DNA of 64,000 nucleotides, taken from NCBI GenBank assembly GCA_043745805.1, contig JAYTSD010000001.1, positions 32,001-96,000 on the forward strand, read 5' to 3'. This DNA comes from Fibrobacteria bacterium (GTDB lineage Bacteria > Fibrobacterota > Fibrobacteria > UBA11236). Positions within the stretch are counted from its first letter, which is position 1. Each line of letters begins with the position of its first letter. Positions 3 to 50,512 of this stretch are shown here, piece after piece. Below the pieces are notes generated by a model that was not told the origin of the DNA, did not search any database, and saw nothing but the letters and a program-made list of their open reading frames with translations. The position numbers were made by a program, and so were the translations under genes.

Positions 3-380
3 GATAATACGGGTGGAGGTGAAGCACAGGTTTCCGCTCCCGTAGAAGAAAAACCAAAGACGCATACCCGAAGAAAGAAAAAATCTTCTGAAGCAGAGCC
101 TGCTAGCCCTGCAAGTGATTTTTCTACAACGCCCTCCGCGCCATCTGAGCCTTCTATCCCTGCTGCACCAGCCTCGGAAAGTTGGGGTTCTCCTGCTTCG
201 GAGCCAGCTACTCCTGCCGCTTCATCGGCCCCTGAAAGTACAACTCCTGCACCATCGGTACCCAGCGAACCAACAAAAGCATTGGAACCTCCTGCTCCCG
301 CTAATGACAGTTGGGGTGCACCAAAGAGTGAGCCTACCGCTCCCGATACTGGGAAAAGTCCCGGTAAAGATGCTTGGTAA
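3..380 (+). CDS. 3' part of a protein with a Pro/Ala/Ser-rich, low-complexity C-terminal tail (5' end outside the window)
   Basis: Open frame from position 3 (DNTGGGEAQVSAPVEEKPK...SPGKDAW) to TAA at 378-380. Not in the ORF track because it has no start in the window. Confidence 0.75.
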   Translation, partial: DNTGGGEAQVSAPVEEKPKTHTRRKKKSSEAEPASPASDFSTTPSAPSEPSIPAAPASESWGSPASEPATPAASSAPESTTPAPSVPSEPTKALEPPAPANDSWGAPKSEPTAPDTGKSPGKDAW

Positions 381-1741
381 AAATAAGACCTTATTCAGTG
401 CCAGCTAAATCTTCTCAAACCGCGCGTACCGGAATCGATAAAAAAGTACGCATCATCAATTTAGGTTGCTCCAAAAACCAAGTCGATAGCGAAAATATTT
501 TAGGTGAATTTGGCCGTGCCGGATTTACACGCGCCCATGAAGACGAGGCCCCTCAGGTTACCGTGATCAATACCTGTGGTTTTATTGAGTCCGCCAAAGA
601 AGAATCCGTACAAGAAATATTGGATACCTTGCAACAAAGAGCCAAGGGTGAAAAAATTGTGGTAGCGGGATGTTTATCCCAACGTTACATGGAAGAATTA
701 AAAAAAGACATTCCCGAAGTGGATCTTTTTGTGGGAACTTATCATCCCGGCGAAATGCTTGCCAAATTAGGGTTGGATTCTACAAAGCCTTCGGATTGTG
801 ATTTTGGAGCGGCTCCTCGCACTTTAATGGGTGATGAACCGCATCATGCTTTTTTAAAAATTGCTGAAGGTTGCAATCGTATTTGTGGTTTCTGCGCCAT
901 ACCCGGTATGCGCGGGAAACAAAGAAGCAAAAGTATTGCCGATATTGTTAAAGAAGCACAAGAGCTACAAAGCTGGGGTATTCAAGAAATTTCTTTGATA
1001 GCGCAAGACCTAACTTATTTTGGGCGTGAACAAGGCGGTAAAGAAACTTTGCAACAATTGTTACATGCCTTATTGCAACATACCGATATTCCTTGGATAC
1101 GTATGATGTATGCCTATCCCGCGTTTGTCGATGATGGATTAATTGATTTAATGGCCTCGGAAAAACGCATTTGTAAGTATTTAGATATTCCTATTCAACA
1201 TGCCAGCGATAATGTTTTAAAGGCTATGCGCCGTAATTATACCCACGCCGATATGCGTCATTTATTTTCGCAGATGCGTAAAGCCATGCCGGAGATTTCT
1301 TTGCGTACCACGGTACTTCTAGGTTACCCTGGGGAAACCGAAAAAGATGTGGACGAGTTACTGGCTTTTATGGAAGAAGTACGCTTTAAGCATTTAGGTG
1401 GTTTTACTTATTCCGATGAAGACGGCACTTATGCTTTTGATCTCAAGGATAAAGTGGAACTAGAAGTGATGGAAGAACGTTTAGAAAGAGTAATGGCTTT
1501 ACAGCAAGAAATTTCTAGCGAAGAAAACCAAAAACGTATTGGTAAAACTCTGGAAGTATTGATTGATGGGGTTGCTGAAGGTGAAGACTATCGTTTTATA
1601 GGCCGCACTCAAGGGGATGCGCCGGAAGTGGATAATCGGGTATTGATTTATGCAGATGGTGATGCCGCTCCAGGGACTTTCCGCCAAGTATTTATTACTG
1701 ACTCTTTGGAATATGATTTAGAAGGTAAGTTGGTTGAATAA
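374..1741 (+). CDS. rimO: Ribosomal protein S12 methylthiotransferase RimO (true start possibly GTG at 398)
   Basis: UPF0004 N-domain (LGCSKN, NTCGFI, GCL), radical SAM CxxxCxxC (CNRICGFC), C-terminal TRAM with DAPEVD. Confidence 0.93.
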   Translation: MVKIRPYSVPAKSSQTARTGIDKKVRIINLGCSKNQVDSENILGEFGRAGFTRAHEDEAPQVTVINTCGFIESAKEESVQEILDTLQQRAKGEKIVVAGCLSQRYMEELKKDIPEVDLFVGTYHPGEMLAKLGLDSTKPSDCDFGAAPRTLMGDEPHHAFLKIAEGCNRICGFCAIPGMRGKQRSKSIADIVKEAQELQSWGIQEISLIAQDLTYFGREQGGKETLQQLLHALLQHTDIPWIRMMYAYPAFVDDGLIDLMASEKRICKYLDIPIQHASDNVLKAMRRNYTHADMRHLFSQMRKAMPEISLRTTVLLGYPGETEKDVDELLAFMEEVRFKHLGGFTYSDEDGTYAFDLKDKVELEVMEERLERVMALQQEISSEENQKRIGKTLEVLIDGVAEGEDYRFIGRTQGDAPEVDNRVLIYADGDAAPGTFRQVFITDSLEYDLEGKLVE

Positions 1742-1899
1742 ACCACTTTCTAATTGAGTTCTTTTCTTCTCAAACACATATTTATTTACTGATTAAAATT
1801 TGCTGGTCATTATTTGAACAGAAAGAAATTTTTTTAGGCGATTATTAGCACTTTAAATTCTTGAAGCTATTAAAAACCATTTTTTGGCGTGTAAACATT

Positions 1900-1915
1900 T
1901 GGCAAAGCTTTTGCT
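1900..1915 (+). promoter_or_regulatory. Sigma54 -24/-12 promoter
   Basis: TGGCAAAGCTTTTGCT, exact GG-N10-GC spacing. Confidence 0.75.
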
Positions 1916-1924
1916 GTACTTAAT

Positions 1925-2033
1925 AGTACAGAGAAACTTTAAAGCAACTTACCCGCGCAACGGAATTTCGTCGGTGACCTGAAGGGCCGGCGGAATCAAT
2001 GCGGAGGGACGACACCTAAGTCGTCCCTTTTTC
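1925..2033 (+). ncRNA. Candidate sigma54-dependent small RNA (~110 nt)
   Basis: Lies between the sigma54 promoter and an intrinsic terminator, with a GC-rich stem (CCGC...GCGG, TTTCGTCGG/CCGGCGGAA) and no credible ORF. Confidence 0.55.
2005..2033 (+). terminator. Rho-independent terminator
   Basis: AGGGACGAC-acctaa-GTCGTCCCT perfect 9-bp stem followed by a T tract. Confidence 0.85.
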
Positions 2034-2056
2034 GTTTCCCAGATTTTTTTAGAAGT

Positions 2057-2470
2057 TTAGCGAAGACGTAAAGTGTCGGGACCAGATGATTTTTCGAAAT
2101 GGCAAAGGCATGTATTCGTGCTTAATTGAAAAATGCTTTCATAAGGCTTGTCTTTATAATTTATATGCACATTTAGACTTGCACTGGTTCCATCTATTTT
2201 TCGCACTAAAGAATCATTAAAAATTTGATAACGTCCGACACTATAGCCAGTTGTATCCACCAAATCTAAAGGCGTTTGTGCTTGATTCAAATAAAGTTTA
2301 ACGGTGGCTGAGGTAATCGGATGTTCATCGGTATCAACTAGGTATAAATTAAGTATCCGATAGCCCTTACATTTTGGGCAGTCAGTAGACTCCACATGAA
2401 ATTCACAGGCCCAAAAAAGGCTTCCAAAAACGAGAAAAGAAAGTATTCCGAATAAAATTTTGTTACGCAT
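2057..2470 (-). CDS. Hypothetical lipoprotein
   Basis: MRNKILFGILSFLVFGSLFWAC lipobox-like signal (ATG at 2470); Cys pairs CPKC and CLC. Confidence 0.65.
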   Translation of the reverse strand: MRNKILFGILSFLVFGSLFWACEFHVESTDCPKCKGYRILNLYLVDTDEHPITSATVKLYLNQAQTPLDLVDTTGYSVGRYQIFNDSLVRKIDGTSASLNVHINYKDKPYESIFQLSTNTCLCHFEKSSGPDTLRLR

Positions 2471-2588
2471 TTGGGTTAAAGTAACAAAAAAGGAGCTTGA
2501 TATCACTTGTTTCAAGGGAAAGCGACAGGGAAATTCCCATTTTCCCCTTTAATTACCTATTTTTCAGCCGCTTATTGACGGGAGAATT

Positions 2589-48827: not shown

Positions 48828-50262
48828 AATTTCAATACTTATTGTAGACGATGAAGAGGATATTCTTACTTCTGAAGAATTGGTATTACAGATGAATGGC
48901 TATACTAATATTACTACTTGTTCGGATTCGCGAAAAGTGGAAAGTATTCTGAATAAGAATCCGAATAGCCTCGCCATTTTGGATATTACTATGCCGCAAA
49001 TAGACGGTATAGAACTTCTTTCTCGGATTAAACACAATCATCCGCAAGTAACGGTGGTAATGATGACCGGATTAAATGATGTGGAAACAGCGGTTCGCTG
49101 TTTAAAGAATGGGGCTCTTGATTATATCCTTAAACCCTTCGATCAAAATCGGTTTTTGACTTGTGTAAAAAAAGCGTTAGAGCATCATATTGTTTGTGAT
49201 GAATCTATTCGTTTAGCACGCGGTGTACTCGAAGAGAATGTTATAAATCCCAAAAGTTTTTCTGCAATTGTTACTCAGGAAAGACGATTGGTTAATATTT
49301 TTAAATATATCGAAGCCGTAGCGCCAACGGGTTTATCAGTTCTGTTAACAGGGGAAACCGGTGTAGGTAAAGAATTATTTGCTAACGCGGTGCACTTGGC
49401 AAGTGGTCGAACTGGTGAGTTTGTTTGTGTGAATAGTGCTGGGATTGACGACGCCATGTTTAGCGATTCACTTTTTGGCCATGTTTCTGGCGCTTATACA
49501 GGTGCGCAAAAGGGTCGCAAAGGTCTTATTGATCGCGCTAAAAATGGAACCTTATTTCTTGATGAAATAGGAGACATGAAACCGGAAACTCAAGTTAAAC
49601 TATTACGTTTATTACAAGAAGGAACCTTCTACCGCTTAGGTCAAGAGACTGAAGAAAGAACCAATGCTAGGATTGTGGCGGCCACTAATCGTTCCTTAGA
49701 GGAATTACAGAATGATCCCCGTTTCCGAAAAGATTTATTTTATCGCTTAAAAGCGCATCATGTATATATCCCTCCCCTGCGGGAAAGAATGAATGATGTG
49801 CCTTTACTTACCAATAGGTTTTTAGCCCAATGCGCCCAAGAACAAAACAAAGCGAAACCCACTCCCCCTCCAGAACTAGATATTTTACTTTCCAATTATC
49901 ATTTTCCGGGAAATGTACGCGAGTTACGTGGTTTGGTTTACGATGCGGTCAGTAGGCATCAGGGTGGAGTTTTATCCTGTAGCTCTTTTAAAGATGCAAT
50001 CGGAACGAAACATTTAAGTAACGGTAACGTGAATAAAATGATTCCATTTAGTAAAGAAATACTTTTTCCATCCCCACTTCCTTCGGTTCGAGAAATAGAA
50101 AATGCACTTATTCGCGAAGCATTAAAACGAACCGGTGGTAATAAATCCTTAGCTTCGGAAATGATTGGAATGGCCCGCCAAACCTTTAGAACTAGAGTTA
50201 AGGAATTGCAGCCTCCTTGGGAAAATGCTGATAACATGGTAGAAGTAGAGGGAATAGACTAA
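48817..50262 (+). CDS. NtrC-family sigma54 response regulator (REC-AAA+-HTH)
   Basis: GETGVGKE, GAYTGA, LFLDEIG, FPGNVREL, Fis-type HTH; ATG at 48817. Confidence 0.93.
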   Translation: MHHEISILIVDDEEDILTSEELVLQMNGYTNITTCSDSRKVESILNKNPNSLAILDITMPQIDGIELLSRIKHNHPQVTVVMMTGLNDVETAVRCLKNGALDYILKPFDQNRFLTCVKKALEHHIVCDESIRLARGVLEENVINPKSFSAIVTQERRLVNIFKYIEAVAPTGLSVLLTGETGVGKELFANAVHLASGRTGEFVCVNSAGIDDAMFSDSLFGHVSGAYTGAQKGRKGLIDRAKNGTLFLDEIGDMKPETQVKLLRLLQEGTFYRLGQETEERTNARIVAATNRSLEELQNDPRFRKDLFYRLKAHHVYIPPLRERMNDVPLLTNRFLAQCAQEQNKAKPTPPPELDILLSNYHFPGNVRELRGLVYDAVSRHQGGVLSCSSFKDAIGTKHLSNGNVNKMIPFSKEILFPSPLPSVREIENALIREALKRTGGNKSLASEMIGMARQTFRTRVKELQPPWENADNMVEVEGID

Positions 50263-50496: not shown

Positions 50497-50512
50497 TGGC
50501 ACAGGGCTTGCA
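50497..50512 (+). promoter_or_regulatory. Sigma54 promoter
   Basis: TGGCACAGGGCTTGCA, near-consensus. Confidence 0.85.

Follow-up and report, generated by a model that had tools for sequence, protein, structure and literature searches.

The Qrr RNAs of Vibrio are sigma54- and LuxO-dependent, terminator-ended small RNAs (sRNAs) of about 100 nt, and the paralogues share one conserved pairing region. The enterobacterial homologues GlmY and GlmZ have overlapping sigma54 and sigma70 promoters, and GlmY acts as a decoy for GlmZ, protecting it through mimicry towards a protein rather than through base pairing. Plasmid antisense pairs such as CopA/CopT and RNAI/RNAII initiate pairing at loops and are transcribed from opposite strands of one locus. 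Two reports describe sRNAs directed against other sRNAs. In Caulobacter crescentus, CrfA is a signal-induced sponge that pairs with and inactivates the sibling sRNAs SisA-D (PMC12559287). In Rhodobacter sphaeroides, StsR, which depends on RpoHI/HII, binds the abundant sRNA UpsM or the leader from which UpsM originates, and RNase E cleavage was shown (PMC8266604). RNA regulation in Fibrobacterota is almost uncharted, and our literature search returned, in the text available to it, nothing on sRNAs of this kind in that phylum.

We examined a real-looking small-RNA gene located behind rimO in an uncultured member of the Fibrobacteria which, as judged from sequence, appears to belong to none of CrfA, StsR, Qrr or GlmY/GlmZ. 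Its kind, a base-pairing sRNA or anti-sRNA, would be a known one; the two families to which it leads appear to be new and neither is present in Rfam 15. We refer to these families as class A, a set of conserved hairpin sRNAs, and class B, terminator-ended sRNAs that begin with a seed complementary to the class A loop. The best reading of the locus is a sigma54-wired, 5'-extended class B paralogue that may act as an anti-sRNA or sponge of class A RNAs, and we put the chances that it is a sigma54-driven class-B-type RNA pairing with class A at about even.

This RNA would share with the Qrr RNAs a sigma54 promoter, a length of about 100 nt, a terminator at the end and paralogues with a common pairing region. 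It differs in having no Rfam match to Qrr, in coming from a genome in which Hfq was not found, in being the one paralogue with a sigma54 word and in having an sRNA, not mRNAs, as its conserved partner. The overlap of a sigma54 word with a sigma70-like site and the proposed control of a small RNA by a small RNA resemble GlmY/GlmZ, but mimicry operates there whereas base pairing is proposed here, and Rfam likewise gives no match to that family. As in CopA/CopT and RNAI/RNAII, the complementarity is long, perfect, centred on a hairpin loop and workable without Hfq, but the class A and class B genes occupy distinct sites on the chromosome, in several copies. CrfA/SisA-D and StsR-UpsM appear to be the nearest analogues in logic. 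Like CrfA, which is set against a sibling sRNA family, one sigma54-wired RNA would here face five class A copies; the Caulobacter pairs, however, were found on Hfq (PMC12559287), and we see no relation to them in sequence or family. This genome also has several predicted seed-bearing RNAs instead of one. The likeness to StsR-UpsM is that an sRNA under an alternative sigma factor would target another sRNA, and that a gene follows closely behind one class A type, as it does behind UpsM; the sigma factor (RpoHI/HII) and the RNAs differ, and the RNase E step belongs to Rhodobacter (PMC8266604).

The window, by which we mean the whole 64,000-nt stretch analysed, is part of contig C1 of an assembly (G000) of 3.95 Mb that is 99% complete and has a G+C content of 40%. 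The upstream gene is rimO (374..1741, + strand; Pfam UPF0004, Radical_SAM and TRAM_2), and an ORF of 152 aa without a Pfam family (2057..2515, - strand) converges on it. The gap between them (1742-2056) contains the small-RNA unit on the + strand, with a sigma54 word, a palindrome, an AT-rich stretch, a 16-nt word, a GC-rich hairpin and a terminator in that order. A sequence-only reading had already listed a promoter, a structured region, a terminator and GGA motifs here, and we found these elements where it had placed them. Behind the rimO stop codon there is only a weak AT-rich inverted repeat (1718-1753) and no strong terminator, so the rimO transcript may enter the unit. A single sediment-metagenome study includes four DNA runs whose contigs contain identical DNA, and two of these runs may be where the window DNA came from; this shows consistent assembly and is not independent support. 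The search of sequencing runs listed none of RNA type that contains it. Genome searches found a gene for CsrA in G000 and none for Hfq, the latter fitting a reliance on long, GC-rich, perfect pairing.

The promoter word, TGGCAA-N5-TTGCT (TGGCAAAGCTTTTGCT; 1900..1915, + strand), agrees with the consensus TGGCAC-N5-TTGCW at 15 of 16 positions, has GG and GC 10 nt apart as the sequence-only reading had claimed, and would place the start of transcription near 1925. Such words are not above chance within the window (2 matches versus 2.5 expected from shuffles). Across G000, a scan with GG and GC fixed and at most one mismatch gave 63 matches, 18 of them intergenic, versus 24 matches and one intergenic for the backwards word, an 18-fold intergenic enrichment over this control when intergenic is crudely defined as not covered by any ORF of at least 100 aa, a criterion that leaves about 9% of the genome. 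A co-directional ORF begins within 400 nt of 15 of these 18 intergenic words. Enrichment and position together indicate that, in G000, intergenic sigma54 words of good quality are usually real promoters. The three orphans consist of one word overlapping the start of a divergent gene, one without an obvious unit and the word at 1900-1915, which is the sole orphan with a terminator downstream and has a structured region in between; it also falls within the range of the 15 gene-associated sites. G000 contains rpoN (207.8 bits) and 15 strong Sigma54_activat genes (each E <= 1e-56). The unit has the look of a small-RNA gene in its own right, with a promoter of the sigma54 type, in a genome that makes heavy use of this sigma factor. 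Upstream of the word, where an activator would be expected to bind about 80-150 nt away, we recognised only AT-rich imperfect inverted repeats and no activator site.

Two further features overlap the promoter region. The first is a sigma70-like site, TTGGCA-N17-AATAGT (1899..1927, + strand), which agrees with its consensus at 9 of 12 positions; between 1500 and 2800 such sites are not above chance (1 versus 3.2 expected from shuffles). The second is a perfect 7-bp palindrome, CTGTACT-TAAT-AGTACAG (1914..1931), that covers both the -12 element and the presumed start site. Elsewhere in the genome (C20:33782) there is a GTACT-N4-AGTAC palindrome, 153 nt upstream of another sigma54 word (C20:33935), and palindromes of this type may be binding sites for a regulator.

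The predicted non-coding RNA of about 109 nt (1925..2033, + strand), delimited by promoter word, fold and terminator, has a folding energy of -38.2 kcal/mol (z = -3.0) and none of 200 shuffles was as stable. Its structured core (1953..2004) consists of a 5-bp helix (1953-1957/2000-2004), including one G-U pair, that encloses a GC-rich hairpin (1963-1997) which also has G-U pairs; the GC-rich, G-U-containing structure drawn from the letters was reproduced in the predicted fold. The intrinsic terminator (2003..2035) has a stem at 2003-2030 of 11 pairs, six of them G-C, with a 6-nt loop and is followed by TTTTTCGTTT; from its sequence it is predicted to function on the + strand only. The only ATG-started ORF inside the unit, and so the longest, has six codons (MRRDDT). 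No part of the window matched Rfam 15 at gathering score and nothing overlapped 1900-2033 at E values up to 10, which leaves the unit outside the Rfam 15 families, including Qrr, GlmY/Z and Csr/Rsm. These findings bear out the earlier account of a clean terminator and a single 6-codon frame. The broader proposal of an undescribed regulatory RNA of about 110 nt gains from the stand-alone appearance, the terminator, the absence of an Rfam match and a 16-nt word that is present in other terminator-ended small RNAs and complements a conserved hairpin RNA, and loses from the lack of conservation of the unit.

A BLAST search of 1880-2040 against 60 relatives gave short matches only, with no full-length homologue and nothing beyond a 16-nt word. 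Conservation downstream of rimO, which the sequence-only reading had put forward as its own check, did not materialize: the unit is absent from all 24 family relatives examined (RimO 67-76% identical), in which the gap has no unit, promoter word or seed, rimO runs directly into the convergent gene and the gene in the position of the convergent ORF adjoins rimO directly. Scanning of metagenomes for promoter word plus seed gave only two chance matches, one inside a dehydrogenase-like ORF and one in an unrelated GC-rich contig, and both were rejected. An unpublished genome (G021) enters the tallies for the 60-relative BLAST, the 14-mer census, the rimO loci, the R1 census and the f2-word count, and alone underlies no claim; a further rimO locus from this genome was excluded, its stop codon not having been located.

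The exact recurrence of 1949-1964 in many relatives surfaced in this BLAST search. This 16-nt seed word (TTACCCGCGCAACGGA, + strand), missed by the sequence-only reading, is the most informative feature of the unit: it complements the class A loop plus 5' stem arm without a mismatch, and the complementarity grows to 17 nt (1949-1965) against the class A copy on contig C28. The seed starts about 26 nt from the inferred 5' end of the RNA and 36 nt past the TTGC of the sigma54 word, and the predicted fold leaves five of the seed bases paired. A 14-mer core has 65 occurrences, spread over 30 of 61 genomes, versus three matches for the reversed control, and is found in 28 of 31 genomes of family f1, in the single f3 genome and in none from f2, f4 or f5. 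We inspected 62 of the 65 occurrences, excluding three from the unpublished genome; 47 are class A hairpins, 12 are class-B-like (two uncertain) and three are other cases, of which one covers a gene's translation start and two fall within sequence that looks coding. In the window the word ACCCGCGCAACGGA (1951-1964) is on the terminator strand with no CCGTT upstream, and the possibility that the locus is a decayed minus-strand copy of class A was rejected because the closing stem is missing after the loop word. Outside the class A and class B copies, 10-nt matches to either strand of the word show no excess (32 versus 28 for reversed controls).

A seed word of 12-14 nt also lies on the translation start of TIGR02147 (Fsuc_second, DUF4423) genes in two genera (L041:1494-1520 in G031 and L287:1500-1515 in G012); one word ends 6 nt before the ATG and the other forms codons 2-5. 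The class A loop may target these two mRNAs. None of the 18 TIGR02147 paralogues in G000 has loop complementarity at its translation start, the longest shared word being 6 nt.

Class A RNAs are encoded on the strand opposite to the seed word. Promoter-like boxes (TTGCxx-N17-TAnnTT) are followed by CCCUCGA and then by a first hairpin with a 6-7-bp outer stem, a small bulge, an inner stem CCGUU/AACGG and the loop GCGCGGGUAAU; the 3' part contains a second GC-rich hairpin and a C-rich tail, and the commonest type also has a U-run there. In an alignment of 30 distinct sequences, 99.4% of cells are paired and 6 of the 12 pairs have changed on both sides. None of 500 shuffles reached the observed covariation on four of five measures and 6 of 500 did so on the number of further pair types, whereas sliding the structure by 1-3 columns reduced pairing to 23-52%. 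The transcribed strand is fixed by 12 G-U pairs at a single position, since these would read as A-C if the opposite strand were transcribed. As the alignment set was collected by an exact 14-mer, invariance of the loop within it is partly circular, a problem that the model search lifts only partly. A covariance model of the hairpin (R1) matched 34 of 39 genomes of the order with 1-7 matches per genome (28 of 31 in f1, 4 of 6 in f2 and 1 of 1 in f3), so that class A is nearly universal in the order. Among the lower-scoring matches the loop is either kept alongside a compensated change of the inner stem (L250) or present as a variant.

G000 has five R1 matches, at C28:54360-54411, C21:23560-23610, C3:1174-1225, C45:197484-197535 and C46:120892-120940 (loci L210-L213 and L257; the C46 match is weak), two of which are either on a contig of 1.8 kb or close to where a contig ends. 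The genes flanking class A are conserved: rpiA and an S1/P1 nuclease gene in one type, and a DEAD-box helicase gene and a DsbA-like gene in another. Rfam gave no meaningful match on class A and class B loci; the sole row with E < 0.01, MicX on another locus, was far sub-threshold and terminator-like and was discarded. A scan of a contig collection with the class A hairpin word returned at least 118 stretches, a mixture of true loci from Fibrobacteria metagenome-assembled genomes and chance matches in GC-rich genomes. One of these contigs is titled uncultured Bifidobacterium sp. (L115), and its class A sequence is identical to that at L058 in G020, a Fibrobacteria genome; this contig is probably mis-binned.

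Class B comprises occurrences in which the word is on the terminator strand and has no upstream pairing partner. An alignment from six genomes of one genus shows TTGCAT-N17-TATAAT, 6 nt, ACCCGCGCAACGGAC, a short hairpin whose stem starts in the CGGAC/GGAC at the seed end, a linker and then GACGCCUCC...GGAGGCG with a U-run; variation is confined to spacers and loops, while boxes, seed and stems are kept. The boxes and the 6-nt spacing imply that the seed is the 5' end of an RNA of 60-70 nt. Class B is also present in a second genus (L049, L240) and on contigs C4, C25 and C39 of G000, the C4 copy having TTGGCT-N17-TAAAAT ahead of the seed; degenerate units occur on contigs C20 and C30. Its spread is patchy, with about 10 genomes in f1 and two of six in f2, and none was found in the small-genome genus g4 (searched with the 14-mer in 12 genomes and with an 11-mer in five). 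In one genus (L010:1170-1472 and 1492-2598, G013), class B lies between a FlgM-like ORF of 100 aa (24.9 bits, cut-off 25) and a Sua5/TsaC gene.

The unit in the window shares with class B the seed, a hairpin that starts from the GGA at the seed end and a terminator with a UUUUCGUUU-like tail. The layout of its hairpin (1963-1997) matches those of L049, which is from the nearest genus and is the closest, L010, L223 and others. It differs in that the sigma54 word replaces TATAAT and about 26 extra nt precede the seed; the class B arrangement of a seed at the very 5' end, 6-8 nt past a TATAAT-type -10 box, is absent from this unit, in which no good -10 box precedes the seed.

Evidence for pairing between the two classes comes from folding and from evolution. 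Co-folding of the window RNA with four class A copies of G000 gained -14.2 to -16.5 kcal/mol over the monomers, and the predicted dimer is held by a seed-loop duplex while the hairpin and terminator of the window RNA are retained. When the first 41 nt were shuffled, mean gains for two class A copies were -3.2 and -4.0; of the 100 shuffles made for each copy, not one reached -14. Whole-sequence duplex energies, from a method that ignores intramolecular structure, were no better than those of shuffles and were discarded. The class A loop of family f2 is GCGCGAGU, a G-to-A change (G034, G035, G036 and G037), and the class-B-like RNAs of this family at L262 (G035) and L269 (G034) carry ACUCGCGCAACGG, the matching C-to-U change, in units that are terminator-ended or structured and non-coding. 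A third, L264 (G034), carries UUCUCGCGCAACGG, the exact complement of the loop of one G034 paralogue (CCGUUGCGCGAGAA). The f1-type word is found in none of the six f2 genomes; the f2-type 12-mer occurs in f1 genomes at the level of the reversed control, and six matches that we inspected were not sRNA-like. These matched loop and seed changes represent two evolutionary events, seen in two or three f2 genomes; they speak for pairing being under selection without proving it, and the evolutionary evidence is stronger than that from co-folding. In G035 (contig C211) the class A copy (L262:539-590) and the class-B-like unit (L262, 701 onward) are divergent neighbours 138 nt apart. At another locus (L305:~1500; G038:C13:7020) a small hairpin has an f2-type word in its loop; hairpins are followed by U-runs on either strand, and neither class can be assigned.

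A sequence of events can be proposed for the locus. RNA polymerase with sigma54 and one of the enhancer-binding activators of the genome would initiate near 1925, and the intrinsic terminator would end transcription near 2033. The resulting RNA of about 109 nt would display the 16-nt class B seed UUACCCGCGCAACGGA about 26 nt from its 5' end and would pair with class A RNAs, loop first and then by invasion of the stem. The outcome could be anti-sRNA or sponge action, or the triggering of class A decay, and a signal sensed through sigma54 would thereby reach whatever class A controls. The contrast between patchy class B and near-universal class A, together with several copies in G000 that have different promoters, fits a role for class B as modulators. 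For the order as a whole we propose, tentatively and with slightly less than even confidence, an Hfq-free two-part module in which sibling hairpin sRNAs with a near-invariant 11-nt loop are matched by co-evolving anti-sRNAs, copies of which are wired to different signals, that in the window to a sigma54 activator. If this reading is true, the locus is an entry to two undescribed, mutually pairing sRNA families and to an sRNA-sponge circuit, with one copy under sigma54, in a bacterium in which no Hfq was found. With matched variants already present in nature (loop G-to-A, seed C-to-U), the pairing is open to direct testing in vitro, and the class A model R1 can be used at once for annotating these genomes.

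Other explanations differ from this one in the origin of the RNA, in the direction of regulation or in whether there is a functional RNA at all. A real RNA with a class B seed may arise from a sigma70-like site, or be cut from a long rimO 3' UTR, with the sigma54 word being a chance look-alike of a -35 box. Such an origin could draw on the sigma70-like site that overlaps the word (1899-1927), on the sigma70-like boxes of the C4 copy (TTGGCT-N17-TAAAAT) and of class B elsewhere (TTGCAT-N17-TATAAT), on the missing strong terminator after the rimO stop codon and on the failure to recognise an upstream activator site. We nevertheless regard it as unlikely, since the sigma70-like match is at chance level (1 versus 3.2 expected) and has a poor -10 box, a start from this site would put the seed about 17 nt into the RNA, unlike in other class B genes, and the sigma54 word matches at 15 of 16 positions in a genome with 18 comparable intergenic sites versus one for the control. 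Another explanation reverses the roles, so that class B RNAs are the regulators, class A is a target or sponge, the seed acts on leader hairpins and mRNAs, and the sigma54 copy provides an extra input to a shared regulon, much as happens with sibling sRNAs that have a common seed. Class B is built like a trans-acting sRNA, with a 5' seed followed by a terminator; one class A type is 60-120 nt upstream of the S1/P1 nuclease ORF on the same strand, its second hairpin lacking a U-run; and an ORF on contig C3 of G000 begins about 40 nt past a class A copy. Class A, however, has its own promoter-like boxes, and its commonest type ends in a U-run terminator followed by a convergent gene. It is also far more widespread (34 of 39 genomes versus about 12 found for class B), and 10-nt matches outside the A and B copies are not in excess (32 versus 28); we consider this reversal improbable, while still a serious competitor.

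There is also a small chance that the unit is an inert leftover, generated by a recent insertion or duplication that happened to carry a copy of the word together with a chance resemblance to a promoter and a terminator belonging to a neighbouring gene. The unit is present only in G000, the same place being a short gap in 24 relatives; it has no homologue in the collections searched (60 relatives and the metagenome scan); and the seed is partly paired in the predicted fold, all of which could reflect such an event. Against this, three independent signals are correctly ordered and oriented within 135 nt, the word has stayed intact for 16-17 nt without coding constraint, and a terminator specific to the + strand cannot serve the convergent gene. 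The hint in the sequence-only reading that the RNA could be a sponge titrating CsrA/RsmA fares worst and in our view is very improbable indeed. G000 does encode CsrA, and the several GGA motifs that had been noted are present (four, two of them as ANGGA); they are, however, not enriched (2.1 expected from shuffles, P = 0.13), none is in a predicted hairpin loop, and Rfam at E up to 10 gives no match to a Csr/Rsm family. The sigma54-wired class B paralogue thus remains our best reading of the locus.

Two minor observations concern other sites. Just behind rimO in one relative (L084, G012:C1) there is a CRISPR-like array, in which a repeat of about 32 nt occurs at least five times with spacers of similar length. 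Within the window, a perfect sigma54 word (TGGCACAGGGCTTGCA) at 50497-50512 is followed by an ORF 53 nt downstream and lies just behind a Sigma54_activat gene (window ~49267-49761; G000:C1:81267-81761), and these look like an activator and its target promoter.
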